This document shows positions 2 through 49,781 of a stretch of 49,987 bases of DNA, piece by piece. Below the pieces are notes generated by a model. That model saw only the letters and a program-made list of their open reading frames with translations. It ran no database searches and was not told where the DNA came from. The DNA lies in contig KV454011.1 of assembly GCA_001661245.1 (NCBI GenBank), positions 1,022,426 to 1,072,412 of the forward strand, given 5' to 3'. This DNA is from Pachysolen tannophilus NRRL Y-2460 (Eukaryota). A program made the position numbers and the translations under genes. Each line of letters starts with the position of its first letter. Within the stretch, counting starts at the first letter, position 1.

Positions 2-1363
2 CATTATTGTTCTTTCAGGTTTCCAACCAATTTTCAACAATTCGTTAAAACCACGAATGATCTCAATCATGACGGAACTACCAGAATTGGGATCACCAGC
101 ACCACCTTTTGTCCAAGAGTCCCTATGGTTTCCCAAGATAATAATCTCATCCTTCTTGTTTCCAACAATAGTTCCATAAACATTCCATAAAGGTGTAATA
201 TTATAGATTTGATCACTGTACAAATTTAACTTAAAATTAGGATTAGGACCAACATAATAATCATAATCAGGTAAAGCTCCAACCCAATCTTCACCACCAA
301 TTTTTTTTGATCTTATACCATGACCATTTAATTTGGATAAAATTGGTTTGATCTCTCTATAGCTGATAGTTAATACTGGAATTTCACCAATGGCACCATG
401 AGGATCTTCTCTTTCAATATTATCACCTTTTGATGGGAAGCCTGGAGTAGTTGGATCACCCGGCTGAAAGGTGATAAATTGAACCGAGCCTCTTTGAACA
501 CTACTAGGGTTTCTTGCAGGTCCATCGGGGTAAGTTTTATACCCATTCTCAGGAGTTATACCATTATCATCACCAGGATCTAAATAAAGTAACATACCAA
601 TAGCACCTGCTTCCTGAGCAAATTTTACCTTTAAACCACGAAATATGGCCCCATATCTTGCTATAGTAATTTTACCCTTAACATCAACACCTTGAGACAG
701 TAATAATTCAAAATCTTTCTTAGTACCATAATTGACATAAACATATTCCGCGGTAACGTTACCGTTTGCACCATATACCAAGAAAGTTGGAACTAATCCT
801 TCTCCCGTAGTAGTTACATCTTGTTCCAATTGGTCTTCCTTCAAAGAAGGCTTATAAACCACTTCATCAACCTCTTTATCACTCTTAGTAGTTTTAATCA
901 ATTTTAAAGATTGCTCATTTGGATAGCTGACGTAAACGTCATAATCATCAATTTCAGTTTGTAAGCCATATTCTTTAAATTTTTTCTCAGTCCATTCAAC
1001 AAGACCATAATTAGTTCCCAGTAAATGAGGTTCACTAGTATATTTCTGAGACCAATTACCACTTAAATTAGTTTCCAATGCTTTTAAGAAAGTATCAAAT
1101 AATAAATCTTTATCTAAGTTGGAACTAGTAATATGATTAACTGAATTGCCTTTACCTTTAATCAAATTGGTAACAAAATTTTTATTACAATTGCAAGAAC
1201 CAAGACCAAAAAAAATTGGAGAAACCCAATGAAATTGACTGATAATTAAAAATGCCAATGAAAGGCCAATAACTAATTTTGAAATTAAGATTCTCTTCTT
1301 CAGTGAGAAAGAGTTCTTACTGTCTTCACCCGACAATGAGTAATACGGAAATTTTTCATTCAT
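2..1363 (-). CDS. VPS70: M28B glutamate carboxypeptidase II / Vps70-like type II membrane peptidase; 3' end runs off the window start
   Basis: Not in the ORF track. Hand-read from ATG at 1363: MNEKFPYYS, an N-terminal hydrophobic segment, YTSEPHL[CTG]GTNYGL, PA domain (GNVTAEYVYVNYG; IARYGAIFRGLKVKFAQEAGAIG), PGDPTTPGFPS, and Zn-ligand motifs IILGNHRDSW and GAGDPNSGS, then GWKPERTIM at the edge. All segments read are in the same frame. Exact orthology (VPS70 vs TRE-like) is uncertain. Confidence 0.88.
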   Translation of the reverse strand, partial: MNEKFPYYSLSGEDSKNSFSLKKRILISKLVIGLSLAFLIISQFHWVSPIFFGLGSCNCNKNFVTNLIKGKGNSVNHITSSNLDKDLLFDTFLKALETNLSGNWSQKYTSEPHLLGTNYGLVEWTEKKFKEYGLQTEIDDYDVYVSYPNEQSLKLIKTTKSDKEVDEVVYKPSLKEDQLEQDVTTTGEGLVPTFLVYGANGNVTAEYVYVNYGTKKDFELLLSQGVDVKGKITIARYGAIFRGLKVKFAQEAGAIGMLLYLDPGDDNGITPENGYKTYPDGPARNPSSVQRGSVQFITFQPGDPTTPGFPSKGDNIEREDPHGAIGEIPVLTISYREIKPILSKLNGHGIRSKKIGGEDWVGALPDYDYYVGPNPNFKLNLYSDQIYNITPLWNVYGTIVGNKKDEIIILGNHRDSWTKGGAGDPNSGSSVMIEIIRGFNELLKIGWKPERTIM

Positions 1364-1868
1364 TTTGTTCAATATCAACTATTGAATTAAAAAATAACCA
1401 ACAAGCCATCGGATGGAAATGATATTCAGGTTAAATAGTGTATTTCAAAATCAAGATGGGGTGATAAGCTACTATTGTCGTTTCCGCTAAAGATTTGTCT
1501 GCAATTTCTTTTAATGTAATATGCAACTCGGATTTAAAAGCTCCAGCCGCACGAGTTCAAAACTAATAAATCCAAAGAAAGCTTTAACAACCAACATTTT
1601 TTACAATTCAATCAAAATAAAAAGTACAAATTAAAACAAGAATAGAAAGGAAATAAACAAACAAAATAATAATAAGAAAAATGCAGTCTGTAAACTGTTA
1701 GGTACATCAAAGTATTATAGGAACAATATGAAATGAAAACAAAAATAGTAAAAAGATAAAAAAAAAAATAAATTAACAAACTACTAGTTTTTCTTTTTTC
1801 CATATTTTAAAAAAAATCCTTCTATGAATGAAAAATTCATATAGTCTATTTATACTTATACTCTAGTT

Positions 1869-9490: not shown

Positions 9491-10543
9491 TTAATAATCA
9501 TATTCATCTTCTTTCCCAAAATCTAGTTGGATTGGGAAACCACAAGTTTTCAAGATTTCATCCACACCATCTTTTAAAACCAAATCTTTTGTCTCTTGAT
9601 TCTTGGCTAATAATAAGCCTAAATAACCAACAGCATTTACACCTAATGTTTCCTTATAATGTGATTTTTGTCTTGGTACAATCATCATCCAATTTTCATT
9701 CATTAAAAAATTATAAGAAATTGGTAAATCATCTTTATAATCATCATTAGTTTCAGCATTAATTTTTTTGAAAAAATTTAAAATTTTTTTAAATAATTCA
9801 ATAAATGAAAATGATAATAATTCTTGTTTTTCTTGTTCTGATTCAAATTTTTTAGGTAATGGTAATATAAAATGTTTAAAACTTAAATCTGACTTAAATA
9901 ATGGATCTGTATCAGGATATCTTGCATCTGGTATGAAAAATTCTTTCCCTTCAACAACATAATCAGGGAAAGGTTTAGATTCTTTAAGTGGATATTTCAT
10001 AAATTGAACATGTTTATGTTGTTGTGAAAATCCACTTGCTGGTCCATTATTGAAAAATGCAAATATTCCTCCTTCATTTTCTTTATCATTTTTTCTACCA
10101 TTAACATTTTGTAAAATGTTGAAAATACAAGTCAATTCTGAAGGACTTAATAAAGTATCTTGTTTAACAAAATTTTTTGTTACTAATAAAAAATGATTTT
10201 CAGATACTGGGAATTTATTTAATAATATTTTATAATTTGAAAATAAATCATCAACAACAACCAATTCTTTATCAGGATTTAAAAATGGATCAAATTTTTG
10301 TACATTCTCCAATTTATCAATTTTTTGAGATTGTTTCTCAGTATCTTCTTCTTTTTTCACAAGTGAATTAATAATTTTTAATTCGCATGTTAAATTACCT
10401 TTATCGATTATTATGGTATCATTAGCTTTCGTATATATCACTTTACCTGCCTCAGTAGCTTCAATAAAATTTTTTCTAATCAATGATTGCAAGTCCAAGT
10501 TCAATAACTCTTCATGAGTCTTTACAGTTACAATGTCCGACAT
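9491..10543 (-). CDS. APA2: Ap4A phosphorylase / ATP adenylyltransferase, Apa1/Apa2 family, copy A (about 350 aa)
   Basis: DPFLNPDKEL, YKILLNKFPVSENHFLLVT, catalytic FFNNGPASGFSQQHKHVQF (HxHxQ), SYNFLMNENWMMIVPR. Likely start is MSDIVT at 10543; the upstream ORF extension is low-complexity. Confidence 0.9.
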   Translation of the reverse strand: MSDIVTVKTHEELLNLDLQSLIRKNFIEATEAGKVIYTKANDTIIIDKGNLTCELKIINSLVKKEEDTEKQSQKIDKLENVQKFDPFLNPDKELVVVDDLFSNYKILLNKFPVSENHFLLVTKNFVKQDTLLSPSELTCIFNILQNVNGRKNDKENEGGIFAFFNNGPASGFSQQHKHVQFMKYPLKESKPFPDYVVEGKEFFIPDARYPDTDPLFKSDLSFKHFILPLPKKFESEQEKQELLSFSFIELFKKILNFFKKINAETNDDYKDDLPISYNFLMNENWMMIVPRQKSHYKETLGVNAVGYLGLLLAKNQETKDLVLKDGVDEILKTCGFPIQLDFGKEDEYDY

Positions 10544-10793
10544 TACCCAATTTGAATTATAATTATAATTATAATTGCGATTGCAATTGCACTTGATTGA
10601 TTCAAAAAAAAAAAGTGATAAAATGGGAAATAATAATGGAAACAAACTTTCTACTTTCATTTTTATACAGGTTAAAAAAAATATTAAATTAACGCCCTTT
10701 TTTGGTAAAACTTTATAGAACTTTTTATTTTATAAAATGAATATATATATATAAATATATATATATATTAATAAATAATTTTAAATCTCATTA

Positions 10794-11840
10794 TTATAGT
10801 TTATAATAATCAATTTTATCATTGGGGAATCCTACTTTACTTAAGTAAGTTTCAAAACCTATTTTTAAAATTTTTTGTTTAACTTCTTCGTTTCTAGCAC
10901 TGAATAAACCTAAAAATTGTAAACTATTTGCCCAACAATCATTGAAATTAGTTGCTATTCTTGGTATTATAACCATATATTCTTCAGTCATAATATAGTT
11001 ATAAGAAATATTTGGATTTAATTCCAACTGTTTTGTTAATAATTCATCTTCATCTTTAGCAATTTTTTTAGCTTTAAAAAAATTTAAAGTAGAAATTAAT
11101 AATTTATTATAAATTTCTAATAATATTTTGCTTGTTATTTTAATTTTTAATTTAGGTAATGGTAATATAAAATGTTTAAATGCAACATCATGGAAAGTTA
11201 AAGGAACCATATCGGTATTATAATCACTACTAGCATCAATGAAATCATCAAAAAATGTCCTAAATTGAACTAATTTCTCATCATTATCATCATCTTTATA
11301 ATAAGGTAAACTTAAAAATTGAATATGTTTATGTATTTGAGAATATCCACTTTGTAAACCACTATTGAAAAAACTGAAAAATCGATCATTTGAACTCTTA
11401 TTTAAATTGTTTAAAATTGTAAACATTGTGAAAAGTTCATCTATAGATAACAACGTATCTTGCTTAATAAAATCTCTTGTTACCATTAAAAAATGGTCTC
11501 TAATATTTGGATACTTATTTAATAAGATCTTATGAGTAGATAATAAATTTTCAACAACCGTTAATAACGGATCATTTTTAGAAAAAGGATTCTTCAGCTT
11601 ATTAGCCTCTTCATCATCAGACTTTCTATTCACAGGCCTAACCGCTAATGCATTAATAATTTTAAAATAATAAACAAGTCTTTGTTTCTTATAAATTTCA
11701 ATATCCGAATCTTTATCTTCAACAAACACTAAATCATTTGATTTGATGGCATTGACAAAAACTTTCTCCACAAGATCTAGTAACGGGAATTGTTGCAATT
11801 CTTCAATAGTAAGTATAGATACTGCACTATGGTCTTCCAT
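10794..11840 (-). CDS. Ap4A phosphorylase, Apa1/Apa2 family, tandem paralog copy B (about 348 aa)
   Basis: KILLNKYPNIRDHFLMVT, FFNSGLQSGYSQIHKHIQF, SYNYIMTEEYMVIIPR. Likely start is MEDHSAV at 11840. Confidence 0.9.
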   Translation of the reverse strand: MEDHSAVSILTIEELQQFPLLDLVEKVFVNAIKSNDLVFVEDKDSDIEIYKKQRLVYYFKIINALAVRPVNRKSDDEEANKLKNPFSKNDPLLTVVENLLSTHKILLNKYPNIRDHFLMVTRDFIKQDTLLSIDELFTMFTILNNLNKSSNDRFFSFFNSGLQSGYSQIHKHIQFLSLPYYKDDDNDEKLVQFRTFFDDFIDASSDYNTDMVPLTFHDVAFKHFILPLPKLKIKITSKILLEIYNKLLISTLNFFKAKKIAKDEDELLTKQLELNPNISYNYIMTEEYMVIIPRIATNFNDCWANSLQFLGLFSARNEEVKQKILKIGFETYLSKVGFPNDKIDYYKL

Positions 11841-12575
11841 AGTCTCCACAAAAAACCTTTCTTCCTTCCTATATATAATAGTATAATAATATAAATAAAT
11901 AAATAAATAAGTATACATATATATATATAGAGAAAGAGAGAGAAAGAAGAAAAAAAGAGAAGGGTGCATGGGTTGTGGGGACAATGCGCACACATCTGCG
12001 TACACCGTGAATATACAAAGTGATGTACGCAATGTGCATTATAAGCGATGCATAGTTATACTTAAAGCGCACACAAGTAGTGGTACGCACTTCTAGTACG
12101 CACTTGTTTAAAATTTTTTTGTTTTTTTTTAAACCGAATATTTTGTTTTTTTTTACTTTACATTTTTAAAAAGCGTCGTTTATAACGAAGAAAAACAAAA
12201 GATTCAGCGGAATAACAATTAATATTTAAGAGATTAATAGTAATAGTTAAAAAAACCCTTTTTTATGGGCAAAATCAATAAGCGTTCTTTCGAAGACTAA
12301 AATATATTTTTATTTTAATTATTGTTTAGTCATATATATATATATATATATATATTTTTATTTATTTATTTAATTGTTGAAAGATAATAATAATATATTG
12401 AAAGAGGGCATAGGGCTTACTAAGCTTGATTTTTATTCGTTCTTTTTTTTTTTTTTTCTTTCTTTTGTTTTTGCTTTTGGTCTGTCTCCCTACAAGACCA
12501 ACAAAGAAAAGAACTTAAAAGAAAAGAACTGAAAAAAGGTGGTATCTGTACATAATAATAATAAAAACATAACAA

Positions 12576-13883
12576 ATGTCAGCATTGCCTTTAGTGGATA
12601 GAAACGATAATGCCATATCGCCTTCTTCGAGGTCATCTTCAGGAGGATCTCAAGAAAGTATTTATTCAAATTTCCATTGTCCGAATTCGATATCTTTAAA
12701 TGTTACAAATGCTCATATAGTGAGTAATTATGATGGGATAGCTCAAGAATCGATTCCAGAAACAAAAGATATAGCATTACCTAATAATTTGACAAGTATT
12801 AATCATGTTGCTATTGATATTGGTGGATCATTGGCTAAATTAATTTATTTTGCTAAAAATGATAATAAGATTGGAGGGAAAATGAATTTTGTTAGAGTAG
12901 AAACTGATAAAATTGATGATTTTATAAAATTAATTAAATTAGTTTTTAAAAATCTTTATAATTATAATCCTGATCAAAGAGATAAAGATGAAATTAATAA
13001 AGATATTTGTATAATGGCCACTGGAGGTGGACTGTTTAAATTTTATGATAAATTATTTAAAGAATTAAAATGTAATATAGTTAAAGAAGATGAAATGCAA
13101 TGTCTTATTATAGGATTGGATTTTTTCATAACTGAGATACCAAATGAAATTTTTACTTTAAATAATGAAGATCCTTCTGTATATATTAATGAAGATGTTG
13201 CATTTACTAAAGAAGATTCAATATATCCTTATCTCTTGGTTAATATTGGTAGTGGAGTTTCTATGATTAAAGTAACAGGTCCAAATAATTTTGTTAGAGT
13301 TGGTGGTTCATCATTAGGTGGAGGAACATTATGGGGGTTATTATCTGTATTAACAACAGCTCGTGATTTTGATGAAATGTTGGAAATGGCATTAAAAGGA
13401 GATAATGAAAATGTCGATTTATTGGTTGGTGATATTTATGGTAAAGGTTATAATAAAATTGGATTGAAATCTAATCATATTGCTTCCTCTTTTGGTAAAC
13501 TGTTTAAAAAAATTCAAGATGAAAATATAGATGAAAATGAAGATGAGAATGGTAATGATATAGATGATAAAGATGCAGAAAGGTTAAGAAGAATTAAAAA
13601 ATTTAAAGAATCCGATATTTCTAGATCATTATTATATGCAATTTCTAATAATATTGGTCAAATTTCATATTTACAAGCTCAACGTTATAATTTGAAAAAA
13701 ATTTATTTTGCTGGTAGTTATATAAGAGGACATCCACAAACAATACATACATTGAGTTATGCTATTAATTTCTGGTCTAATGGTAAACAAAAAGCATATT
13801 TTTTGAAACATGAAAGCTATTTAGGAAGTATGGGAGCATTTTTGAAAAAACCTAAAAATGATGTATTTGAAGAACCTACTTGA
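12576..13883 (+). CDS. CAB1: Eukaryotic type II pantothenate kinase
   Basis: AIDIGGSLAK, ATGGG[CTG]FKF, EDEMQCLIIGL, YPYLLVNIGSGVS, RVGGSSLGGGT; adjacent to APA as CAB1 and APA2 are in S. cerevisiae. Confidence 0.97.
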   Translation: MSALPLVDRNDNAISPSSRSSSGGSQESIYSNFHCPNSISLNVTNAHIVSNYDGIAQESIPETKDIALPNNLTSINHVAIDIGGSLAKLIYFAKNDNKIGGKMNFVRVETDKIDDFIKLIKLVFKNLYNYNPDQRDKDEINKDICIMATGGGLFKFYDKLFKELKCNIVKEDEMQCLIIGLDFFITEIPNEIFTLNNEDPSVYINEDVAFTKEDSIYPYLLVNIGSGVSMIKVTGPNNFVRVGGSSLGGGTLWGLLSVLTTARDFDEMLEMALKGDNENVDLLVGDIYGKGYNKIGLKSNHIASSFGKLFKKIQDENIDENEDENGNDIDDKDAERLRRIKKFKESDISRSLLYAISNNIGQISYLQAQRYNLKKIYFAGSYIRGHPQTIHTLSYAINFWSNGKQKAYFLKHESYLGSMGAFLKKPKNDVFEEPT

Positions 13884-13952: not shown

Positions 13953-14240
13953 NNNNNNNNNNNNNNNNNNNNNNNNNNNNNNNNNNNNNNNNNNNNNNNN
14001 NNNNNNNNNNNNNNNNNNNNNNNNNNNNNNNNNNNNNNNNNNNNNNNNNNNNNNNNNNNNNNNNNNNNNNNNNNNNNNNNNNNNNNNNNNNNNNNNNNNN
14101 NNNNNNNNNNNNNNNNNNNNNNNNNNNNNNNNNNNNNNNNNNNNNNNNNNNNNNNNNNNNNNNNNNNNNNNNNNNNNNNNNNNNNNNNNNNNNNNNNNNN
14201 NNNNNNNNNNNNNNNNNNNNNNNNNNNNNNNTAAAAAATA

Positions 14241-14365: not shown

Positions 14366-15088
14366 TCATACTTGATATTTTGTAAACAATTTTTCAATCT
14401 TTAATTCATCCTCTTCTTCTAAAAAGATACTACCATTACCAATCATTCTATATATATTATACAAATTCACTAACCAACTAAGTTGATCAATCTCTAACAA
14501 TTCCATAATTTCAATAATACATAAACCAGAATTGATCAAAACATAGTTTTTAGCCTTTATGATCAAATTAACTATTTCTTCATTTACTCTATCAAGCACG
14601 TTTAATTTCCGTTCCAATTTAAATAATCTCCAATATCTCCATATCGAAGACTTAATTGTTAAAATTAACCAAATTTTAGAAAGTTTTAAAACTAATCCAT
14701 TCAAATAGTTTAATTTTTTATTAGAAATTTTTTTAACATTAATAAACCTTATTAAAAATAAAAAATTTTCAAGTATCGATATCACCACTTCTAAAACTTC
14801 AATCAGCGTCGACTCTAAACGACTATAGTTCAGCACAAACCTACCAAAATTAGAACCAGGAGCAGCAACTGTAGGCCTTATCACTCTCTTCTCCCTATTA
14901 TTATTTCCAGATATTAAATTGATATAAAAAACCGAATGAATCACTTTCTTCAAAGTCTTGGGCTGTAATTGTCTTCTCCTCCCATTCTTCGAACTTAACA
15001 AGTACTTCACTATATATAGAAACTTTACATTCAATCTATCATCTTCAGATTTCAAATTACCATTCTCACTCATAGCTCCACCACTCAT
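14366..15088 (-). CDS. Probable Pex11-superfamily peroxisomal membrane protein (Pex34/Pex36-like)
   Basis: The pattern E..LEVVISILENF...KLSKIWLILTIKSSIWRYWRLFKLE resembles Pex34 from memory. It lies in the block with PRD1, MIC10 and KRR1, which are neighbours of PEX34 in S. cerevisiae. Confidence 0.6.
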   Translation of the reverse strand: MSGGAMSENGNLKSEDDRLNVKFLYIVKYLLSSKNGRRRQLQPKTLKKVIHSVFYINLISGNNNREKRVIRPTVAAPGSNFGRFVLNYSRLESTLIEVLEVVISILENFLFLIRFINVKKISNKKLNYLNGLVLKLSKIWLILTIKSSIWRYWRLFKLERKLNVLDRVNEEIVNLIIKAKNYVLINSGLCIIEIMELLEIDQLSWLVNLYNIYRMIGNGSIFLEEEDELKIEKLFTKYQV

Positions 15089-18546: not shown

Positions 18547-20754
18547 CTAGTTAACACCTAACTCCTCTAAGAAAGCATCAGACTTAGGTTTTCTACCTAA
18601 TAACTCGACTAAATTATCCATTTCATCCCTGGTAGCACCTCTTGCCAATATAATATCTCTATATTGAAGACCGTTGACATTGCTCATTGGATCTTTCTTG
18701 AATTTTGAATAAAAGATATCGGCAGCAAATACCTGAGACCAAAGATAACCATAATATCCAGATTCATAACCTCCCAATAGATGTCCAAAAGAGGCATAAC
18801 CTTTAGTGACTTCACCAAGATTGTCAACTAATGCAATTTCTTCTCTTGAATCATTCCATAAGCTACAAATATCCAATTCTCCAGTTTTTGAAACATGTAA
18901 GGCCATATCAAATAAGGCGAAATGTAATTGTCTTAAATTGAATAAAGCACCATTGACATGTTTTGTACGAATTAAAGAATTTATGAGATCTTCAGGTAAT
19001 TTTTTTTCAGGATTTAAATAATGTGCTGATAATTCTGTTAATCCTTCTTTTGACCATGTCCAATATTCTAACATTTGTGATGGACATTCAACAAAATCTA
19101 ATGAACCAGCTGTACCATGGAATCTAGCATATTTGGCCCTTCCTAATAAATCATGAATACCATGACCTAATTCATGAAAAAATGTTGTAACTTCATCATG
19201 TTTTAATAATGATGGTTTCTCCTTTGTAGGCTTACTAAAATTACAAACTAAAGCTGTTACTGGATAAGCTTTTGAACCATCAGGTTTTGTATAACTTGGT
19301 GAAAGACCAAAGTTTGCAGCATGGCCATATTTACCTTCCCTTGGGAATAAGTCAAAATATAACCAACCAACAAATTCAGGTGATGATGGATCATCTAATT
19401 TCCAAACAGAAAATTGCTTAACATCTTCATGCCAAGTAGATTTAAATTTGGAATCGTTTTCAATTTCTTGAAATTTTAAATTAAATAATTTTTCAAAAAT
19501 TTGCAACATTTTAGAAACTGTTGATTCCATTGGGAAATATTCACTAATTTTCTCAGCATCAATTTGATATTCTTTTTCTAATAACATGTTATCATAAAAA
19601 CGTTGATCCCAACCAGGAAAAGTATTATCTTGAGGTAAATTTCTTATTTTCAAATCTTCTTTTTTCAAAGTAAGTATTCTTTCCTTTTCTTTTAATCCTA
19701 AAGGTTTCAATTTTGTTTTCAAATCATTTAAAAAATTTAATACAGTGGTGGAATTTTTAGCCATTCTCATTTCCAAGACATATTCCGAATAATTTTCATA
19801 ACCCAATAATTTGGCTAAATCTGCTCTAATTTTAATTGCTTCAGTCAATATATCAGCATTTTCAGGAACTTTGTTTTGACTTCCCAAGAAAGTAAGCTTT
19901 CTTGTATTTGCATTTTTACAATATTTTAATACTGGGAAAAAATCTGGATATTTATAAGTCATTTTCAATTTTTTAATTCCATTTTCATTTTGGACCACTG
20001 TAAATTGGTTTAAAACACTTTCTGGTACACCTTCTAACTCTTCTTTAGTAAATAAAAGAAATTCTGTTTCTTCACCTAAATTTTTACTAAATTTTAATTT
20101 TAAATTGGCAAGTTTTTTTTGAAGTTGTTTAATTTTATCTCTTTTATCAAGAGATAAAGCTAATCCATTTCTTTCATACTCTTTATTAACTTTTTCCAAA
20201 AATCTTTTAGTTTCAGAGTCAAGTTTATCAGAATTTTCATATTGTTTAAATAAATGATTGAAAACTTTATAAACTTCTTCTTTCAAACCAGAATCAATTG
20301 CAGTTTCATCAAATTTTTCTTGAGCTTGGTTTGAAGCATCTCTGATTTCTTTTGAAGAAGAAACATGTTGGAAAAAACTTAAATGTTCAATTGGAGTCAT
20401 ATGTACATTCTCTGCATCGGAATACGGTTTTAAAACCGATTCGATGGAGATTTTATCAATTGGAATAGCGCCAATTTTATCATCCATCTCATTACATTCT
20501 TTAATAACTTTTTCAGTTTCAGATAAAATTTCCTCCAGAGTATAATCCCATCTTAATGGTAATTGTGGTGGAATTAAACTTGGCATTATCGAACTAGACC
20601 CTGTGGTAGCTGTATGACTGAATGCTTTACGTAATGGTGTAAAAATTTGTTGATGAGAATTTGCTTGTAAAATATAACCAACTGATATAATAACTAATGA
20701 AGTTGTGACAACTGGGGTCCGATGTTTAACAATAGAACTAACAAGCCTCTTCAT
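18547..20754 (-). CDS. PRD1: M3A thimet-type oligopeptidase (saccharolysin)
   Basis: FFHELGHGIH (HExxH), DFVECPSQMLE, YFDLFPREGKYGHAA, GYESGYYGYLWSQVFAAD; syntenic with MIC10 and KRR1. Confidence 0.96.
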   Translation of the reverse strand: MKRLVSSIVKHRTPVVTTSLVIISVGYILQANSHQQIFTPLRKAFSHTATTGSSSIMPSLIPPQLPLRWDYTLEEILSETEKVIKECNEMDDKIGAIPIDKISIESVLKPYSDAENVHMTPIEHLSFFQHVSSSKEIRDASNQAQEKFDETAIDSGLKEEVYKVFNHLFKQYENSDKLDSETKRFLEKVNKEYERNGLALSLDKRDKIKQLQKKLANLKLKFSKNLGEETEFLLFTKEELEGVPESVLNQFTVVQNENGIKKLKMTYKYPDFFPVLKYCKNANTRKLTFLGSQNKVPENADILTEAIKIRADLAKLLGYENYSEYVLEMRMAKNSTTVLNFLNDLKTKLKPLGLKEKERILTLKKEDLKIRNLPQDNTFPGWDQRFYDNMLLEKEYQIDAEKISEYFPMESTVSKMLQIFEKLFNLKFQEIENDSKFKSTWHEDVKQFSVWKLDDPSSPEFVGWLYFDLFPREGKYGHAANFGLSPSYTKPDGSKAYPVTALVCNFSKPTKEKPSLLKHDEVTTFFHELGHGIHDLLGRAKYARFHGTAGSLDFVECPSQMLEYWTWSKEGLTELSAHYLNPEKKLPEDLINSLIRTKHVNGALFNLRQLHFALFDMALHVSKTGELDICSLWNDSREEIALVDNLGEVTKGYASFGHLLGGYESGYYGYLWSQVFAADIFYSKFKKDPMSNVNGLQYRDIILARGATRDEMDNLVELLGRKPKSDAFLEELGVN

Positions 20755-21178: not shown

Positions 21179-22525
21179 TCAAATACACCATTCTTCAACA
21201 CTTGTTTCATTTTTGATTGGGACTTTTTCCAAGATTCTTATAGCCATTGCATCTGCAAGATCATCTTCTGTGCGGACGAGATTTAAACTTGAACCGCTAT
21301 TTAAATTACATTGACGAGAATGACTAAAATTAGAATCAATTGGAGTTGAAAGTGTTGCGTTAGTTGTGACATAACGATCTAATGGTGATCCAGTTACTGA
21401 AGTTGATGATGTTGTTGTATGTTCAGCCAAAGGAGATGTTAAAAATGCTGATATTTCTGCGCTATTGGCGGAATTCCCCGAGTCAAAAGAGATTTCTCTA
21501 TCCAATTGGAAATTTGAAGCAATTGGAGAAGTAAATTGCGATTGTGATTGTGATTTAAGACTTGAAATAGAAGACCTTAATTTCGACATTGATGTGTTTC
21601 TAGTTAATTGTGAAGTTAAAGTCATACTGAAATCTGCAGTCTGCACAGACAGTGTTGATGAGGATGAATTTTGAATAATCAGATCGTGCTGCTGTTGTTG
21701 TTGTTGTTGCTGTTGTTGCTGTAATTTCTGTTGAACATGTACAGATTCTGGGATGATTGGTGACAATTCTTCATATTTACAAGGCGGTTCTCCCTTTACT
21801 GGGATTGGCGGCAACAAGTCATCGGTCTTCAACAAAGGCGCTTTATCATGTGAATCAGAAGCGCCGCTATTTATTTCAGCAGAAGCAGAAGCAGAATCAG
21901 AAGCAGTACCACTGCCCACACTTGAATTCACTCCGTTTTCTTTTATTTCCAGTGATGTTATTTCCTGCACTCCCAGCGTGACATCCAGCTGATCTGCTGT
22001 ATTTGTATTTGTATTTGTATTTGTTATTATTTTGGTCACACTAGTAAATTCACCGGGAGTACTAATTGTTGATTTCCGAGAAGCATCGGATTTTGCAGAA
22101 TGTATCGATGTATTTCTATTATGGATCGAGGAAGCCCTTGAAGGCGCAGAGGAACTATTCTTGCGAGTTTTTGAATTTGTCCTTCTCAAATTGATTCTGT
22201 TGACAAGTGATGAGTCCTCTCGCACTGGCATTGACATTGTTTGCTGCTGCTGCTGCTGCTGCTGCTGCCGTATATGATTTAGGGCTTGTTCATCCTGCAC
22301 TGTCAACGAATCTTCATACTTCAAACTTATATATTCGTCCTCCTTACCAAACTCGCCTGGGGCAGAGGAAACTGGTACAACCTCCGACAAGGGCGATATC
22401 GAACAAGAGGAAGAAGAATCCACATCCCCCAGCTTCGTAGAAACCGACGATGACCGGATCCTAAGAGTTGTCTTGTTAATGGTCGATCTAACCTTTTTAG
22501 TGAAAGATCTCTTCAAAGTAGCCAT
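21179..22525 (-). CDS. Ser/Thr/Gln-rich, probably disordered protein of unknown function (448 aa)
   Basis: Long ORF, AAAATG context, clearly higher GC than the flanks, two polyQ tracts; no family recognised. Confidence 0.75.
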   Translation of the reverse strand: MATLKRSFTKKVRSTINKTTLRIRSSSVSTKLGDVDSSSSCSISPLSEVVPVSSAPGEFGKEDEYISLKYEDSLTVQDEQALNHIRQQQQQQQQQTMSMPVREDSSLVNRINLRRTNSKTRKNSSSAPSRASSIHNRNTSIHSAKSDASRKSTISTPGEFTSVTKIITNTNTNTNTADQLDVTLGVQEITSLEIKENGVNSSVGSGTASDSASASAEINSGASDSHDKAPLLKTDDLLPPIPVKGEPPCKYEELSPIIPESVHVQQKLQQQQQQQQQQQHDLIIQNSSSSTLSVQTADFSMTLTSQLTRNTSMSKLRSSISSLKSQSQSQFTSPIASNFQLDREISFDSGNSANSAEISAFLTSPLAEHTTTSSTSVTGSPLDRYVTTNATLSTPIDSNFSHSRQCNLNSGSSLNLVRTEDDLADAMAIRILEKVPIKNETSVEEWCI

Positions 22526-25075: not shown

Positions 25076-25548
25076 NNNNNNNNNNNNNNNNNNNNNNNNN
25101 NNNNNNNNNNNNNNNNNNNNNNNNNNNNNNNNNNNNNNNNNNNNNNNNNNNNNNNNNNNNNNNNNNNNNNNNNNNNNNNNNNNNNNNNNNNNNNNNNNNN
25201 NNNNNNNNNNNNNNNNNNNNNNNNNNNNNNNNNNNNNNNNNNNNNNNNNNNNNNNNNNNNNNNNNNNNNNNNNNNNNNNNNNNNNNNNNNNNNNNNNNNN
25301 NNNNNNNNNNNNNNNNNNNNNNNNNNNNNNNNNNNNNNNNNNNNNNNNNNNNNNNNNNNNNNNNNNNNNNNNNNNNNNNNNNNNNNNNNNNNNNNNNNNN
25401 NNNNNNNNNNNNNNNNNNNNNNNNNNNNNNNNNNNNNNNNNNNNNNNNNNNNNNNNNNNNNNNNNNNNNNNNNNNNNNNNNNNNNNNNNNNNNNNNNNNN
25501 NNNNNNNNNNNNNNNNNNNNNNNNNNNNNNNNNNNNNNNNNNNNNNNN
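25076..25548. other. Assembly gap (473 N) bounded by poly(T) tracts
   Basis: Run of N. Confidence 0.99.
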
Positions 25549-26085
25549 AATTTTTTTTTTTTTTCGAAAATAAAACTTAACGCGATAATCAGTTGAGCAT
25601 CATTGTTATTGCATTAGATCTTTATAAATCTACTAATTCTCTTTTTTTTTTTTTAATCTGATTCGAGATTTCTTTTATTCCTTCCTTCCTTCCTTTATTT
25701 ACATTTACATTACAGTATTTTTGTAAATCTGTTTTTTCTTTTCCCAAAAAAATGCTTAAAATTAAGAAACTATCTTTTTTAGTTTTATAGATATCTAATC
25801 ATTATAAAAAAAAAAAAAATAAAAATAAAAAAAAATAAAAAAAAAAAAAAAAAAGATTAATAATGAAAATATAAAAGTAATCAAAAGGAGAATATAGTGC
25901 TGGCTATAAGCCGATTGGAGTAAAACAAACGTAATGTAACATGGGAATAATACTTGAAATACTAGAAAAGTTTTTTTATTAATCGATAACTTTTTATAAA
26001 TTCTTTTTTTTTTTTTTTGTTTTTTGTTTTTTAAATTTTATTTTTCTTACCTTTTGCGTTTAAAAACATGGGGATTTACTTTTAT

Positions 26086-31828: not shown

Positions 31829-32654
31829 TTAAGTAGAAAATGCAAAATCATCATGTAAGGCATCATTTAAAGCAGAATGACTAATTCTACTGCTCAATAC
31901 ATTATGATTATTGAAAGGACTATTGAATCCATAATTAGTTAATTTTGAACCTTTTGGACCTATTGTTATTGTAGAATAATTACCTTTGATCTCATTACTT
32001 CTGTTGTGGAAACCGCTGGTGTCATTTTTCGTGTAATTTTTTGATGATTGATTTATCGTATTTTGCGAAAAATGATGGTGGTGGATATTCTCATTGACAG
32101 GATGCAACGGTTTACCTATTTCAGAAGTCACGGTTAAGGATGTAGATAATGTCAATTTTTTCTGTAGCGATTGAGTCCATTGAAGGAACTGAGATGGAGT
32201 CAACTCATTTTTCTGACCCTGATGATGATGATTATGGTGACGACGTTTATCACTATGCCTTTGCAAGTGAGGATATTGATCTTCACCACATCTCATGCTG
32301 TCGTCAAGAAATAGATCAAGCATTTCTCCTTGAGGTCGCAAGAATTCATGGATGAAAACTGGATTTGATGAGGAATTTGTTTCATTTTTTTTAATATTTT
32401 CCCTTTTCTTAAAGTAACTATTCGCGACAACAGCACTTAACAATTCTTTTCCACTTTTGGCATTGTTGATATTTGACTTTATATCTTGTGGTCGCGGTGA
32501 TCGAGGTGATCGAGGTGATCGCAAATAGTTATCAAAACTATTCAAGAACGGGAGCGAACTAACAGACGCTTTCAATGATATGGTTCTGGAAGGTGTGGAT
32601 AGTGACTCTTGACTGGAAATATGACTTTTTAAAAAATTGGTATTTTCATTATTT

Positions 32655-32695
<41 letters not shown>

Positions 32696-34171
32696 ATTTT
32701 CTTGTGTTGCCAGGGAAACAGTTGGAGTCGCATTAATATGCATGGTTTCAATGGTTGGGTGATTTTTAGATCCGGAATTTTGAAATTTGTTTAACCAGAG
32801 CAACGTTTGTTTCTTTAAACGATCATTTTCCATAAAAGTGGCATTGTAAGGTTCAGGCGAAGAAGGAGATGATGAAATTGTGGAATAAGTAGTAGTTGGT
32901 AATGACAATGATAAACCTTGATTTGTAGAAAAAATACTATTATGAGAACCGGATCTTTTCATAGTAAGCGTTCCTGAAGAGGAAGTAGAGTCAGAATTTT
33001 GTTGTTCTATATGATGTCCCAAGTTAAATTGAGATAGCAAAGTAGAAGGACTTAAATCAAGATCTAATTCACTATTATCAAATTCAAAATTTTCAGTATC
33101 ATAAAAATTTAAACCTGTATCATAGGAAATAAAATGCCTAATATTTGTATTTAAGCAACGTTCTTTTTCTCTTGTCAAATATTTGACCATTTCATTTGAA
33201 TTGTGGTCATAATCACTTTCATATATTTCATTATCGGTAAAACTGTGCACAGTTTGAAACTCTGGAGTTTCGGGCATAGAACTACTACGTTTCCTCGATT
33301 GGGTTACCGTTTGTTCCTCTTGATTGTTGGGCATTGTATTTATAATAATATCATTCAAGTTTTTATTCAACTTCGGTATGCATTTTTCATTAGCTGGTAC
33401 CAGATCCAGTTCCAGCTCCAGTTCCAGCTCCAGTTCAGGGTATGTAGAGCTATTTGGAGTAGAGTAATACATAGTATTTAACGAATCATTAAATTCGTGA
33501 GTTGAATTGGGGGTTGGTGATAAAATCTTTTGAGTCTTGCATTTTATTGGTCTCAATTTAAAATCAACTACAGTATCATCATTTTCATTCTCATATTGTT
33601 GTTGTATTGTTTGATTCTGAGTCTGTTGATCATTTGTTAAAACAGTTGTTGGAAAATTTTCAGTAAAAATCTCATTATTTGAAAATAATTCATTATTATT
33701 ATTATTATTATTATGATCAAGTTTTTTCTCTTGTTGATTTATATTTATATTTAAATCTCCACAATCTTTATATTTACAACTGAGATATTCATATTCCAAA
33801 TATAAATTTTCAAGTGTTGCTTCAGTAGTTTTCCAATCCAATTTAGATCCTCCAATTCCTTTATTCATATTTGAAATATGATTTTCTTCATTAAACATGG
33901 CATGTGTAGCCAATACATTCAATTGTGCTTCAAAATAACTTGTTCTCAAATTCATTGCTTCCAATTGTCTTGCTAAAAAATCTGATTTAAAATTTGTATA
34001 ATTAACATCATTTTGTTGTATATTCTTAGTATGGTTACGTAAGCCCTCATGAAGATTTATTATGTTACTCATCAACCTTATACTATCATCCATAGATCGA
34101 ACTGTATCTGATGATAAGCGCTTCAATCTCTCTAAAACAATGGGGAGATTGAAATCATTAGAGAAATCCAT
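31829..34171 (-). CDS. VAC17: Vac17-like vacuole-inheritance myosin V adaptor (about 780 aa)
   Basis: C-terminal SSRISHSALNDALH resembles the Vac17 C-terminus from memory; N-terminal helix LERLKRLSSDT; convergent with MRC1 as in S. cerevisiae. First ATG is at 34171. Confidence 0.65.
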
Positions 34172-38670: not shown

Positions 38671-38991
38671 TTAAAGTGAAGTACCTGATGAAACTGAAGA
38701 GCGCGCTTTCCCAGTACCTGCTTTTGGAGGGAAATTTGTATCAAACTCATCATCAATATGTCTACATGAACACCATAAATCTTGTGAAGTATTTTCCATA
38801 ACATTCAGGATGTGCTTACCACACCCAGTCCATGACTTTTTATCTACATCATAGTGAAAAATGCAATTTTACAAGTTAGTATTAAGAGTTTCAGACAACA
38901 AAGGCTGTTTTGTTCTTGAACTTGAACTTGATCTTGAACTTGTTTCCCGTATATACATACTGCAAATAGGACAGATAGCTGTATTACACAT
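38671..38991 (-). CDS. Small Cys-rich protein, two exons (38991-38961, 38843-38671), 67 aa
   Basis: Not in the ORF track. Intron 38960-38844 has perfect GTATGT, TACTAAC (38881-38875) and TAG. Spliced product: MCNTAICPICNKKSWTGCGKHI[CTG]NVMENTSQDLWCSCRHIDDEFDTNFPPKAGTGKARSSVSSGTSL. Confidence 0.9.
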
Positions 38992-39707: not shown

Positions 39708-40574
39708 TTATGAACTTGCTGGAATACCTTCAATGATAACATCTGAATCCTCACTGCTATTGATCACAAATGTGACATTGCTTGGAGTTGATTCTGAGGC
39801 AGGAACAGTTGCTGCTGCTGCTACAGGAGCTGCTACAGGAGCTGGAGCTGGAGCTTTATTTTCTTCTTCTTGTTCTTCGGTAATGGTGGCTGTCTTTTTT
39901 GGTATATAAGTAGGACCACGGGTTTCTGTAATATCACCAAATCCCCATTGTGTCAACATTGAAATAAAAGCAGTACTTAATGCAACTTCTCTATCAATCT
40001 TTGCTTCATCTAAAACCATTTCAAAATCAAATTTCCATTGTCTCATCAATTTAACTTTGGCTAATCTTTCATGTATTTCTTCATCACCACCTTTTGGATT
40101 AATGATTTTTTCTAAAAATTTTGAACCTCTAGTCCAAGAATATTTGGCTCCATCATTTAAATAAAATGATCTGGTTCTACCAGTAGTTAATCCAGATTCA
40201 TTAGTGATAGCACGATGTTGAAGCCCTTGCTTATTATGGAAATCGATTGCTCTTAAAAAGAAACCAGCTCTTATAGTTGCAACTGCTCTTCTTGAAGGGA
40301 AAGCATACATGGACCAAACTGGATTTAAAGGACTCTTACGTTCAATAGTATATACTTTCTCACCATCGCCATTGAATACATTGACGACTTTCTGTCTATC
40401 AGCTCTTTCTCTACGAATGTAATAAACTGATGTTGGATTGGATAATGGAACAATATTTGCATCAGATGTATGGAAATCTAAAAAATCTTTTAAATATAAA
40501 TGTTCCATCATATATGTACAAATTGTAATACCTGTACTCCAAGCGTAAACAGCTGGTGCTTCAAAAATTGGCAT
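39708..40574 (-). CDS. Uncharacterised 288-aa protein, beta-rich core with an Ala/Pro-rich tail
   Basis: Clean ORF with globular composition; the VVNVFNGDGEKVYTIERK...VATIRAGFF pattern is reminiscent of tubby-C/LURP/scramblase folds (inference). Confidence 0.85.
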   Translation of the reverse strand: MPIFEAPAVYAWSTGITICTYMMEHLYLKDFLDFHTSDANIVPLSNPTSVYYIRRERADRQKVVNVFNGDGEKVYTIERKSPLNPVWSMYAFPSRRAVATIRAGFFLRAIDFHNKQGLQHRAITNESGLTTGRTRSFYLNDGAKYSWTRGSKFLEKIINPKGGDEEIHERLAKVKLMRQWKFDFEMVLDEAKIDREVALSTAFISMLTQWGFGDITETRGPTYIPKKTATITEEQEEENKAPAPAPVAAPVAAAATVPASESTPSNVTFVINSSEDSDVIIEGIPASS

Positions 40575-42473: not shown

Positions 42474-44888
42474 ATGTCTTCAGGAAGTGATTCTTTTGAT
42501 GATGACGACGATGATGTGTTTATCGCTTTGACTGCTAGGCATTCGGAAAAACAGACCCAAAATCATTCACAATTCCAACAACAAAGTGATGAATCAGGAT
42601 TGGTACTTCCTCCTCCTATGACTATTGAAGATGATAGTCAATTATTAGCTGTTCAAGGAGAAAATTCAATATTGAGGGCCAAACTTGAGGAATTGGAGAG
42701 GGCAAAGAACCTGGATTTGAAAAAACTGAGGGATAGGTATAATGCAGAAATTAATGAAAAAAATTCTAGGATTCAACTGTATAAAGATGCAATTATTAGA
42801 ATAGAAGATGAGAAAAAATTTCTTTCTTCAGAGATTAAGAGCTTATCTACAAAATCGAATTTGAAAAAAAGGAAATTGAATACCCAGGGAGCTGTTTCAA
42901 TAGATACTCAGAGGCCATCGGTTCATAATGATGTCATAAGTACACTGAGCGAATTTTCACCCAAAAGAGATGTTATAATGATTGACAATGAACGAAAAGG
43001 AGTAGGAATAGGAGCAGAAACAAATGCAAATGCAAATACAGAAGAAGAAGAAATTAAGAAAACGCAACTGCAAACAAGGTTCACCCAAGAAGCTCCAAAA
43101 AATATTACAATTTTAAAACAAACTACTATAATACCAAATGAAAAAGAGCTCTTTATAGAAACTATCTGCAATCATGTAATAAACGGTGCTCCAAGGTCAA
43201 CATTAGACTATTTATTTAAAATATCATCTGAAATCGATTTTGAGCATGAGGGTTTTATTGTGATTCTGGGGAAGGATAATATCAAATCATTGATTATAGA
43301 TTATTTAATACAATATAACAAGAGTAATTTGAGGTTAGACAATTTATTGTCTGAATTCATAGAGGTTTTGACAGTTTACATCCAACGTTTACTATTGGCA
43401 TCATCATTTTTACCGGTACCTTTCTTATTAGCATTAGTCCATTGTGCATTGATTTATAGACCTGTTGCAATAAGTGGCGATATCATTGAACAACTATTGA
43501 CTTTCAATGCTGATTTGATGTCAAGCTATATATCCACTCTTAAACCTATCAGTGATAATGCTATAGATGGTAGTGATAGTAATTCTATTTCAACATTACA
43601 TCAAAAGTCTTACCAACTTATAGTCTTGGAAAGGTTTATTGCAACTTTTTCATTGGATATTGTTGAAGTATTATCACAATTAAGTCAATTTAATGGTGTT
43701 TCCTCGATTAAGAAATTTTCGACAAATTTCCCAAGAACAATGTTAATAGCAGGACTAGCATTGACGACGCCAATAAACTATGTATTTAACATGATTGAGA
43801 TATTAATCAATTCCACTTCAGAATGTACGTTTGCATACACTCATTTGCCAGAGCGAGAAAATGGCGGTGATGGTAATGATGGTGATTCTACTGTAACTTA
43901 CATCTCCGAAGATGATAACACTTTATTACTCACAATGACCAAGCTATTGATGGATGGTTTGCCGTTAAAGGAAGGATTTAGAATCTATGGTTTAAATCGT
44001 ATTATTGGTAATAATGATGATATCGAGTTGTTGGATGCCTTGGTTCCAAATGATGATGTATCTGATTTACCGTTATCAAATCTCATAACTCAAAAGCCGT
44101 TACCAATTTCATCTGACAAGTTTTCTTTTTCAAAAAACACTCTGCAAAATAAGATTTCCCATGAATTACATGCTTTAGATTTAAGATTACAAATTTTGAG
44201 ACAATTGGAATTATTAGTATTATATGATAATTTCCATTTGTTAAAAAGTGAAACTTTATTATCTATAATTAAAATTATAATTTATTTATTAGCTGGTCAA
44301 CAGGAATATATTATGCGAGTACCTCGATGTGAAACAATTCAAAATAGAATTTTGATTATAAATTCCGTGGTTAAAATAATACATTATATTTGGACAAATT
44401 CCGAATTATCTCAAAGGCTTTTAACAAGATTATCAAACGATGTTTCTTACGAGTTGCTATTATCATTTGCAAGGATATCTTTCAGCACAACAGATAATCT
44501 ATCATCATCTGCATCGGCAGCTTTAACCCAAATACGAGAATCAGGTTTCAAACACGCAGTTTATAATAAAAATTTAGAATTTAAAAATTATGAATTAAGC
44601 AATTTAAAAGAAAATTATATAATGTATTTAAACAAAAAATTCAATAACAATAGTGAAAAAGATGATGAAATGATAATTCAAGAATTAATAAAGACAAACA
44701 TGTTACCGAACGGTTTAGAATTTCCTTATGATGATGATGTTATTGAGATGGCCAGAGATGTGCTAGAAATTTACACAACAGCTGATGAAGCTGATAATTT
44801 ATATTTTTCAATGAACTATGTTCCGGAAACTAATGATATTGATGAATTGATGTTGGAATATGCAGATGGTAGAAATGGTCGTCACTAA
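42474..44888 (+). CDS. LCD1: Lcd1/Ddc2 (Rad26/ATRIP) Mec1 partner, 804 aa
   Basis: Acidic N-terminus SFDDDDDD, QGENSILRAKL coiled coil, LKKRK basic patch, helical C-terminus; convergent with RPL37 as LCD1 and RPL37B are in S. cerevisiae. Confidence 0.82.
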   Translation: MSSGSDSFDDDDDDVFIALTARHSEKQTQNHSQFQQQSDESGLVLPPPMTIEDDSQLLAVQGENSILRAKLEELERAKNLDLKKLRDRYNAEINEKNSRIQLYKDAIIRIEDEKKFLSSEIKSLSTKSNLKKRKLNTQGAVSIDTQRPSVHNDVISTLSEFSPKRDVIMIDNERKGVGIGAETNANANTEEEEIKKTQLQTRFTQEAPKNITILKQTTIIPNEKELFIETICNHVINGAPRSTLDYLFKISSEIDFEHEGFIVILGKDNIKSLIIDYLIQYNKSNLRLDNLLSEFIEVLTVYIQRLLLASSFLPVPFLLALVHCALIYRPVAISGDIIEQLLTFNADLMSSYISTLKPISDNAIDGSDSNSISTLHQKSYQLIVLERFIATFSLDIVEVLSQLSQFNGVSSIKKFSTNFPRTMLIAGLALTTPINYVFNMIEILINSTSECTFAYTHLPERENGGDGNDGDSTVTYISEDDNTLLLTMTKLLMDGLPLKEGFRIYGLNRIIGNNDDIELLDALVPNDDVSDLPLSNLITQKPLPISSDKFSFSKNTLQNKISHELHALDLRLQILRQLELLVLYDNFHLLKSETLLSIIKIIIYLLAGQQEYIMRVPRCETIQNRILIINSVVKIIHYIWTNSELSQRLLTRLSNDVSYELLLSFARISFSTTDNLSSSASAALTQIRESGFKHAVYNKNLEFKNYELSNLKENYIMYLNKKFNNNSEKDDEMIIQELIKTNMLPNGLEFPYDDDVIEMARDVLEIYTTADEADNLYFSMNYVPETNDIDELMLEYADGRNGRH

Positions 44889-45851: not shown

Positions 45852-45887
<36 letters not shown>

Positions 45888-46062: not shown

Positions 46063-46136
46063 TTAGAAAAAACATTGTATTTTGCGCACACGACCGATTT
46101 CTGTCTTCTTTTTATTCATTTAAAAAAATTATTTTT

Positions 46137-46182
46137 TCGCGTTTTTAATATTTTGTAAACAGAAACAAAGGGAAAATCGCGT
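46137..46182. promoter_or_regulatory. MCB/SCB-like TCGCGT x2 (46137-46142, 46177-46182) and forkhead site GTAAACA (46155-46161) upstream of TOS4
   Basis: Motifs read directly; TOS4/PLM2 are G1/S-regulated in S. cerevisiae. Confidence 0.55.
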
Positions 46183-46376
46183 CTTTTTTTGTTTTTTTAT
46201 TTGTTTTTGTCTTTTGTTTGTTTCCTGTATGGCCATCGGTCTTTGGTGATAATAACAATAATATTAGGAAAGGTATCATTTATAGGTTTTTTTTTTTTTT
46301 TTTCTTTTGAATGCTCCACATAGTGTATAGCTGAAAGAAGAGTAAAGAAGGATTTAGATTTGAGCAATACGGTAAG

Positions 46377-48062: not shown

Positions 48063-48283
48063 CTAAGTTTTAAAAGTTATATACCGCACGGCAAATACAC
48101 ACATAGATAAATACATAGATAAATACATACCTACTACAAACCTACATACATGTCCACTGCCATCTATCGTATAAACAGAGCAATTTCTCGTATATCTTTT
48201 TCTCTTTTTTTACAAAGCATGTGCGATTTTTTTTTCAAACGTTACTTTTTATCCATGTAATCAAACAATAAATTAGACCATTG

Positions 48284-48352
48284 CACGTGACTTTTAAACG
48301 CTAGATTTTGAGTTTCGAGGGTAGCACGGCGGTGCAATACACGTGATGTGGC
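48284..48352. promoter_or_regulatory. Sulfur-regulon module: two Cbf1 sites (CACGTGA 48284-48290, 48340-48346) and a Met31/32 core TGTGGC (48347-48352)
   Basis: Exact motifs about 280-345 nt upstream of SAM synthetase. Confidence 0.7.
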
Positions 48353-48388
48353 AGTACATTAGAGTGCTCTATTCCGAGGGCATTTTGT

Positions 48389-48419
<31 letters not shown>

Positions 48420-48629
48420 CAACAAAAAAATTTTCATGTGGTCAAGACGGGAAAACAACAACGTTTTTTTAATTTTACTTGTTATATATATTATTTATAT
48501 AAATAAATAAATATATTTAAGAATTTTTTTTTAAAAATTTTTTTTTTTTTTTATATTTTTTGTTATTTGTTATTTAAAATTTGCTAATCATTTTTTTAAC
48601 AATCGAATTAATTATATAGAGTAATAATT

Positions 48630-49781
48630 ATGTCACAAGAAACTTTTTTCTTTACATCAGAATCTGTTGGTGAAGGTCACCCAGATAAGATCTGTGATCA
48701 AGTTTCGGATGCTATTCTTGATGCTTGTCTTGCTGTTGATCCTCTTTCCAAAGTTGCATGTGAGACTGCTGCTAAAACTGGTATGATTATGGTTCTTGGT
48801 GAAATTACTACCAAGGCTCAATTGGATTATCAAAAAATTATTAGAGATACAATTAAACATATTGGTTATGATAATTCTGAAAAAGGTTTTGATTATAAGA
48901 CTTGTAATGTTTTAGTTGCTATTGAACAACAATCTCCAGATATTGCTCAAGGTTTACATTATGAAAAGGCTTTAGAAGAATTAGGTGCTGGTGATCAAGG
49001 TATAATGTTTGGTTATGCTACTGATGAAACAGAGGAAAAATTGCCATTAACTATTTTATTAGCTCATAAATTAAATGCTGCATTAGCTGCTGCAAGAAGA
49101 GATGGAACATTACTGTGGTTGAGACCAGATACCAAGACCCAAGTTACCGTTGAATATAGAAATGACAATGGTGCAGTTATTCCATTAAGAGTTGATACTG
49201 TTGTTATATCAACTCAACATGCTGAAGAAGTTACAACTGAAGAATTAAGATCTCAAATCATTGAAAAAGTTGTTAACAAAGTTATTCCAGCCAAATTATT
49301 AGATGCTAACACCAAATATCATATTCAACCATCAGGAAGATTTGTTATTGGTGGTCCACAAGGTGATGCTGGTTTAACCGGTAGAAAGATTATTGTTGAT
49401 ACTTATGGTGGATGGGGTGCTCATGGTGGTGGTGCATTTTCTGGTAAAGATTTCTCCAAAGTTGATAGATCAGCTGCATATGCTGCTAGATGGGTTGCTA
49501 AATCATTAGTTCATGCTAAATTGGCCAAGAGAGCCTTGGTTCAATTCTCATATGCTATTGGTGTTGCAGAACCATTATCTATCTATGTTGACTCTTATGG
49601 TACTTCGAAATATTCATCTTCAGAATTAGTTGCAATTATTAGAAAAAATTTTGATTTAAGACCAGGTGTTATTGTTAAAGAATTAAACTTAGCAAGACCA
49701 ATTTATTTCAAAACTGCATCTTACGGACATTTCACTAACCAAGAAAACACATGGGAACAACCAAAAGATTTAGTTTTATAA
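48630..49781 (+). CDS. SAM2: S-adenosylmethionine synthetase (SAM1/SAM2 pro-ortholog)
   Basis: [32 protein letters not shown]. Confidence 0.99.

Follow-up and report, generated by a model that had tools for sequence, protein, structure and literature searches.

In the stretch of contig KV454011.1 analysed here (49,987 bases over its whole length, hereafter the window) the codon CTG is in all probability translated as alanine. We put the probability at about 93% that the window derives from the nuclear genome of a budding yeast belonging to the CUG-Ala clade (order Alaninales; NCBI translation table 26) and that all 65 CTG codons of its credible open reading frames (ORFs) specify alanine. The initial annotation had proposed alanine instead of leucine or serine, and four independent lines of evidence agree with this proposal: the columns of homologous proteins, a resampling that took the window's own codons for Leu, Ala and Ser as reference, Pfam profile scores and the public protein records. 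The observation was confirmed and its interpretation is supported. The CUG-Ala code was already known (PMC4937558, PMC5951914), as had been stated along with the proposal, and it is already applied in public annotation. As described in the literature, CUG would be read by an alanine tRNA whose anticodon has mutated to CAG, and each of the 65 CTG codons would insert alanine, not leucine.

The codons were counted in a credible set of 21 ORFs, for which ORF 24929-25573 was left out and ORF 10794-11969 was cut back to a start at 11840. These ORFs contain the 65 CTG codons (66 in all 22 ORFs) within the span 698-49115, corresponding to 0.60% of 10,759 codons or 3.1 per ORF, and 17 of the 21 carry at least one.

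CTG codons on the columns of homologous proteins

The four CTG codons singled out in the initial annotation are all present, in frame and at the positions given there. They represent codon 115 of an ORF with M28 peptidase and PA domains (1021-1019, minus strand; context TSEPHL[CTG]GTNYGL), codon 153 of the pantothenate kinase (PanK) gene (13032-13034, plus strand; MATGGG[CTG]FKFYDK), codon 162 of the S-adenosylmethionine (SAM) synthetase gene (49113-49115, plus strand; RRDGTL[CTG]WLRPDT, within L-x-WLRPDTK) and a codon in the second exon of a small, putatively spliced gene (38808-38806, minus strand; GKHI[CTG]NVMEN). The last of these is uninformative on the code, as the gene matches no Pfam family and its homologues lie outside the comparison.

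The M28 fragment was aligned with 150 representatives, PanK with 119 homologues (self hit excluded) and Lcd1 with 39 homologues. M28 site 115 (PHL-x-GT) is located on a conserved Ala column with the composition A 118, gap 13, T 6, P 6, S 3 and one each of G, K, L and E. The same applies to PanK site 153 (ATGGG-x-FKF), where 106 relatives have Ala, 13 have Ser and none has Leu, and where Ala is also found in the solved chains of yeast Cab1 and of human PANK1 and PANK3. The family motifs PHLAGT and ATGGGA(F/Y)KF that had been cited in support of the alanine reading therefore stand, with Ala in 118 of 137 filled cells and in 106 of 119, respectively. For the SAM synthetase site, given there as Ala or Pro in yeast enzymes, the comparison covered human sequences, and the residue is Pro in the five MAT2A chains. 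A third Ala-dominated column was detected at Lcd1 site 102 (42777-42779, plus strand), with A 27, L 3, S 2, I 2, V 2, T 2 and Q 1.

Further sites were compared with solved chains. Codon 125 of the second Ap4A phosphorylase (11595-11597, minus strand; K-x-KNPF) corresponds to Ala in the S. cerevisiae Apa2 chain 4i5t, and codon 73 of the M3 oligopeptidase (20536-20538, minus strand; LRWDYT-x-EE) corresponds to Ala in thimet oligopeptidase and to Pro in neurolysin chains. The two CTG sites in the KRR1 tail face M/R and E/E in yeast/Chaetomium, and the mL57 sites face C and L; these four sites are variable positions and were not counted.

Other sites of the aligned proteins are less conserved. M28 site 222 (698-700, minus strand) lies on a variable column (A 25, E 23, K 22, V 22, Q 19, D 11, R 7, L 6 and others) and M28 site 21 consists mostly of gaps, while the Lcd1 sites 80 and 265 are variable and few or no homologues have a residue at its sites 158 and 199. 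None of the 12 CTG sites of Spa2 is located on a column with a consensus of at least 60% among its 38 homologues, so that this protein adds almost nothing. For the nine CTG sites of Mrc1 the sole significant alignment to S. cerevisiae Mrc1 (residues 892-1238) does not contain any CTG, and none of the CTG codons of Spa2 and Mrc1 falls within a Pfam domain.

The codons of the window as a yardstick

The non-CTG codons of the window in the same four alignments served as controls, a column being regarded as conserved at an occupancy of at least 0.7 and a top residue of at least 0.6. According to this definition six CTG columns are conserved, with the consensus A in three cases and V, L and F in one case each. 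Among the 128 conserved columns of other Leu codons the consensus is Leu in 100 and Ala in none; the 45 conserved columns of GCN (Ala) codons have Ala in 30 and Leu in three cases, the 60 of Ser codons have Ser in 31, and the 42 of Val codons have Val in 27 and Ala in one. The Ala consensus under CTG (3/6 compared to 0/128 under other Leu codons) is beyond chance, and none of the six conserved CTG columns has a Ser consensus. The initial annotation had suggested such a tabulation of CTG columns against homologues; the conserved ones proved to be mostly Ala, and not mainly Leu or Ser.

The difference in log-likelihood (LL) between the readings was calculated for the 16 CTG columns of sufficient occupancy and compared to resampled sets of the window's own codons. 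LL(Ala)-LL(Leu) amounts to +5.8 at the CTG columns, whereas sets of 16 true Leu columns give -19.2 +/- 3.9 and 0/2000 of them reach the observed value. Similarly, LL(Ala)-LL(Ser) amounts to +1.66 compared to -3.58 +/- 1.26 for true Ser sets, again with 0/2000 reaching the observed value. In line with this, the mean Ala fraction in the relatives is 0.199 at CTG columns (GCN 0.328, Leu 0.025, Ser 0.088, Val 0.056), the mean Leu fraction is 0.108 at CTG columns compared to 0.517 at Leu columns, and the mean Ser fraction is 0.057 at CTG columns compared to 0.282 at Ser columns (0/5000). CTG is thus found on Ala positions of conserved proteins, and the leucine and the serine reading are each rejected by the resampling.

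Pfam scores under five readings

Eight proteins were translated with CTG as Leu, Ser, Ala, Val or Thr and scored against Pfam (8 domains, 15 CTG sites; scores summed by hand). The summed scores are highest for Ala with 1302.5 bits, followed by Ser (1298.3), Thr (1295.9), Val (1289.6) and Leu (1287.0), which corresponds to large margins of 15.5 bits over Leu and 12.9 bits over Val. Alanine is the top reading in the families Fumble, LCD1 and Ribonucleas_3_3. Ser or Thr is marginally on top in Ap4A_phos_N, NAD_binding_10 and S-AdoMet_synt_M (in the latter Leu 159.1, Val 159.5, Ala 160.4, Ser 160.7 and Thr 160.7 bits), and in Sos7 Ser is on top in a tie with Val. The score of the PA domain is constant at 40.9 bits in all five readings.

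Public protein records and placement among yeasts

All 16 CTG sites compared in four of the window's own proteins are Ala in the public records. The database copies show A at both sites of PanK and at all seven of LCD1, and exact table-26 translations of KRR1 (two CTG) and Sos7 (five CTG) are present in the NCBI/UniRef collection. Based on exact look-up, this collection contains neither KRR1 nor Sos7 in the table-1 form, and no table-12 form of KRR1. The table-26 forms in the public records therefore indicate that the depositors had already applied CUG=Ala. Exact look-up did not retrieve the SAM synthetase under tables 26, 1 or 12, or the M3 peptidase under tables 26 and 1; this probably reflects differing gene models and is not evidence on the code.

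The nearest named relatives of PanK belong to the Pichiales (Kuraishia with 63% and Ogataea with 60% identity), that of Spa2 is Ogataea, and those of Lcd1 are Serinales. In the PanK tree the window belongs to a clade with 100/100 support that also includes Kuraishia, Komagataella, Ogataea and Pichia, and it attaches to the unresolved base of this clade, this being a single-gene tree without Serinales or named Alaninales rows. Judged from this one protein, its position would fit the published place of the Ala clade beside the Pichiaceae, short of proof. The assignment of the genome to the CUG-Ala clade, also made in the initial annotation, agrees with the nearest named relatives, which are mostly Pichiales; as far as the available parts of PMC5951914 and PMC4986446 go, the CUG-Ala clade is placed beside that order.

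Points against alanine and alternative readings

Several points weigh against the reading of CTG as alanine. The sample is small, since the statistics rest on just 16 CTG columns of four proteins, and these columns differ from those of ordinary alanine codons: sets of 16 GCN columns give an LL(Ala)-LL(Leu) of +18.3 +/- 3.5, and 99.9% of the resamples exceed the observed +5.8. Hydrophobic residues (ILMFV) reach a mean fraction of 0.370 in the relatives at CTG columns compared to 0.134 at GCN columns, with 0/5000 resamples reaching the observed value. A crude per-column likelihood furthermore puts Val (-45.86) level with Ala (-45.99). In the Pfam comparison the margin of Ala over Ser is a modest 4.2 bits, and Ser or Thr is equal to or slightly above Ala in four of the seven families with a changing score. 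The table-26 records reveal the depositors' translation, not the decoding in the cell, and neither ARAGORN nor Rfam detected a tRNA gene, and hence a tRNA(CAG), in the window.

Individual sites point in the same direction. The main counter-example is Lcd1 site 85 (42726-42728, plus strand), which is located on a 95% Leu column (L 37, I 2). It represents an exception to a published statement: in the available text of PMC4986446, none of the CUG codons in 26 Pachysolen proteins is at a highly conserved Leu position. Lcd1 site 557 (44142-44144, plus strand) is located on an aromatic column (F 26, Y 8 and one each of L, D, I, V and P), and PanK site 309 (13500-13502, plus strand) on a conserved Val column (V 115, I 3, A 1), with V in the solved chain of yeast Cab1 and M in those of human PANK1/3. 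The window's other Ap4A phosphorylase has Leu at the aligned position of the Apa site, which is ambiguous as a gap adjoins, and mL57 site 223 is opposite Leu in S. cerevisiae. As a side observation, Lcd1 residue 85 occupies a coiled-coil position.

A reading of CUG as serine (table 12), as in Serinales or Ascoideales yeasts, has some points in its favour. Serine is second in the Pfam sum and marginally exceeds Ala in Ap4A_phos_N, NAD_binding_10, S-AdoMet_synt_M and Sos7, 13 of the 119 PanK relatives carry Ser at site 153, and the nearest named LCD1 relatives are Serinales. However, Ala prevails over Ser on the conserved columns by 118:3, 106:13 and 27:2, no CTG column has a Ser consensus, and the low Ser fraction in the relatives as well as the difference LL(Ala)-LL(Ser) are not what true Ser codons of the window show. 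Moreover, PanK groups with the Pichiales at 100/100 support, and under table 12 neither KRR1 nor the SAM synthetase (the latter missing with tables 26 and 1 as well) is found in the public collection. Taken together, it seems very unlikely that CTG specifies serine in the window.

An equally small chance is given to a dual or incomplete reassignment, in which CUG would be mostly Ala and partly Leu, comparable to the decoding as Ser and Leu in Ascoidea asiatica. This would explain the CTG codons on hydrophobic and Leu columns, that is, the higher hydrophobicity of CTG columns relative to GCN columns and the conserved-Leu site 85 of Lcd1, and stochastic decoding has been recorded in another yeast according to the part of PMC6041473 available. 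However, GCN codons also occur on Leu-consensus columns (3/45 conserved ones), and 1/6 for CTG is therefore not unusual. In P. tannophilus 97.2% of 907 CUG positions fully supported by LC-MS/MS were Ala, and the ambiguity of CUG was not above that at AUG (PMC4937558, available text). The single-base distance of CTG to Leu, Val and Met codons offers a simpler reason for the hydrophobic bias than a mixed decoding.

The standard code, under which CTG would be an ordinary, rather rare Leu codon of an AT-rich yeast and the matches to Ala columns would be chance substitutions, is the least probable alternative and can practically be dismissed, because the CTG sites on Leu or hydrophobic columns (Lcd1 site 85, mL57 site 223 and several others) are opposed by an Ala consensus never seen among 128 conserved columns of other Leu codons, a Leu consensus at 1/6 conserved CTG columns compared to 100/128, a low Leu fraction in the relatives, a likelihood difference reached by no set of true Leu columns and the lowest summed Pfam score.

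Valine was also considered as a candidate and rejected, since the consensus is A in 1/42 conserved Val-codon columns compared to 3/6 for CTG and since its Pfam sum is 12.9 bits below that of Ala.

Where the CTG codons are located

With CTG taken as alanine, the CTG columns are nevertheless not typical alanine columns, as the hydrophobic fraction in the relatives indicates. The neighbourhood of the codons is likewise unusual. The mean Kyte-Doolittle hydropathy of the flanking residues (+/-4 residues, 65 CTG codons) is -1.31 and thus markedly hydrophilic, whereas the other classes (Leu, Ala, Ser, Val and Thr codons) range from -0.43 to -0.66 (Leu -0.56, Ala -0.43, Ser -0.50). CTG differs from every codon class in this respect, with 0/5000 resamples for each. 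Since the value is unlike those of all classes, it does not discriminate Ala from Leu or Ser.

A single base separates CTG from Leu, Val and Met codons, and two bases separate it from any Ala codon. Because of these distances, new CTG-Ala codons would presumably arise mostly at tolerant sites where a hydrophobic residue can be exchanged for a small one, and in weakly constrained regions. It is conceivable, though we consider it rather doubtful, that the CTG-Ala codons are the footprint of a captured codon refilling the genome by single-base changes from Leu, Val or Met codons at tolerant sites, and not by the replacement of existing alanine codons. A published summary, in the part available, states that Pachysolen reassigned CUG "mainly at conserved alanine positions". 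A full-text search of the literature, covering the papers but not their supplements and in part only portions of the texts, did not retrieve a description of the hydrophobic-column bias of CTG-Ala codons. The placement of CTG on columns that are hydrophobic in the relatives, and within hydrophilic surroundings, is relevant to the way in which reassigned codons spread again through a genome, and it is the sole part of the present analysis that is possibly worth more work.

Gene content of the window

The window is AT-rich with a GC content of 0.24-0.32 (5-kb windows) and contains 22 ORFs of at least 150 amino acids with ATG starts. Two masked runs of N are located at 13953-14231 (279 bases) and 25076-25548 (473 bases). 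ORF 24929-25573 (214 amino acids) exists solely by virtue of the second run and was rejected as spurious. Among sequencing runs the stretch is contained in five entries from two studies, none of them listed as RNA.

According to Pfam the genes are ordinary housekeeping genes of budding yeasts. They are predicted to encode the M28/PA-domain peptidase (minus strand; its ORF is open at the window edge), Spa2, the mitoribosomal protein mL57, a cyclophilin, two Ap4A phosphorylases (Apa1/Apa2-like) in tandem (9491-10660 and 10794-11969, minus strand), the pantothenate kinase of the Fumble family (plus strand), Sos7, an NAD(P)-binding protein, the M3 oligopeptidase (minus strand), Mrc1, Krr1, Emg1/Nep1, Lcd1/Ddc2 (plus strand) and the SAM synthetase (plus strand). 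No RNA family was detected by Rfam in the window.

The tandem Ap4A phosphorylase paralogues share an identity of 37%. The first 43 codons of ORF 10794-11969 (minus strand) are rich in Phe, Tyr and Leu and non-coding in appearance, and the true start of this second phosphorylase is probably the ATG at 11840.

For four ORFs of 240-780 amino acids, all on the minus strand (39708-40574, 21179-22525, 31829-34171 and 14366-15088), no Pfam family was found at E<=0.001; two of them are rich in Ser, Asn and Gln. In the family-less ORF 31829-34171 a run of six consecutive GAR/GAT-CTG pairs was detected at 33401-33436 (minus strand), which reads E-A-E-A-E-A-E-A-E-A-D-A, i.e. (EA)5-DA, with table 26 and LELELELELELDL-like with the standard code.

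The small spliced gene mentioned above encodes a putative Cys-rich protein of about 66 amino acids (38671-38991, minus strand). A 117-base intron is suggested by the signals GTATGT...TACTAAC...AG, so that exon 1 would correspond to 38991-38961, the intron to 38960-38844 and exon 2, including the stop codon, to 38843-38671. No Pfam family was assigned to this gene at E<=1.

Comparison with known reassignments of CUG

With CTG read as alanine, a translation of the window by the standard code puts leucine in place of alanine at 65 positions, which are spread over 17 of the 21 ORFs and include residues of the catalytic motifs of the pantothenate kinase and the M28 peptidase. Table 26 must therefore be used for this genome. 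Our analysis adds nothing on the code change itself, which was described in 2016, is contained in the NCBI tables and in the diagnosis of the Alaninales and is used in public records.

The closest known system is the code of P. tannophilus (table 26; Muhlhausen et al. 2016, PMC4937558), for which the following statements refer to the available parts of the cited papers. In P. tannophilus CUG is read as Ala and the tRNA(CAG) has G3:U70 and A73 (PMC4937558). The same paper lists 16,824 CUG positions in 5288 genes with 80% of the genes affected, corresponding by division to 3.2 per gene. The window resembles this system in having CTG on conserved Ala columns, in the number of CUG codons per gene (3.1 compared to 3.2) and in the share of genes affected (17/21 compared to 80%), as well as in its AT-richness (here approximately 24-32% GC) and in the Ala at CTG in the public records. 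No difference in kind was found; in the window the reading is based on columns, scores and records.

The Ala clade was later widened to include Nakazawaea and Peterozyma (Krassowski et al. 2018, PMC5951914), and CUG-Ala was included in the diagnosis of the order Alaninales, which comprises Pachysolen, Nakazawaea and Peterozyma (Groenewald et al. 2023, PMC11182611). Pachysolen has been described as sister to Pichiaceae/Ogataea (PMC4986446). The nearest named relatives of three window proteins are Pichiomycetes and PanK groups with the Pichiales in its single-gene tree, which would fit the surroundings published for this clade.

The CUG-Ser codes (table 12; Serinales, e.g. Candida albicans, and Ascoideales) concern the same codon, likewise reassigned in budding yeasts, via a tRNA of other identity with a CAG anticodon. 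In contrast to these codes the CTG columns of the window are rich in Ala and poor in Ser, and serine is rejected by the resampling.

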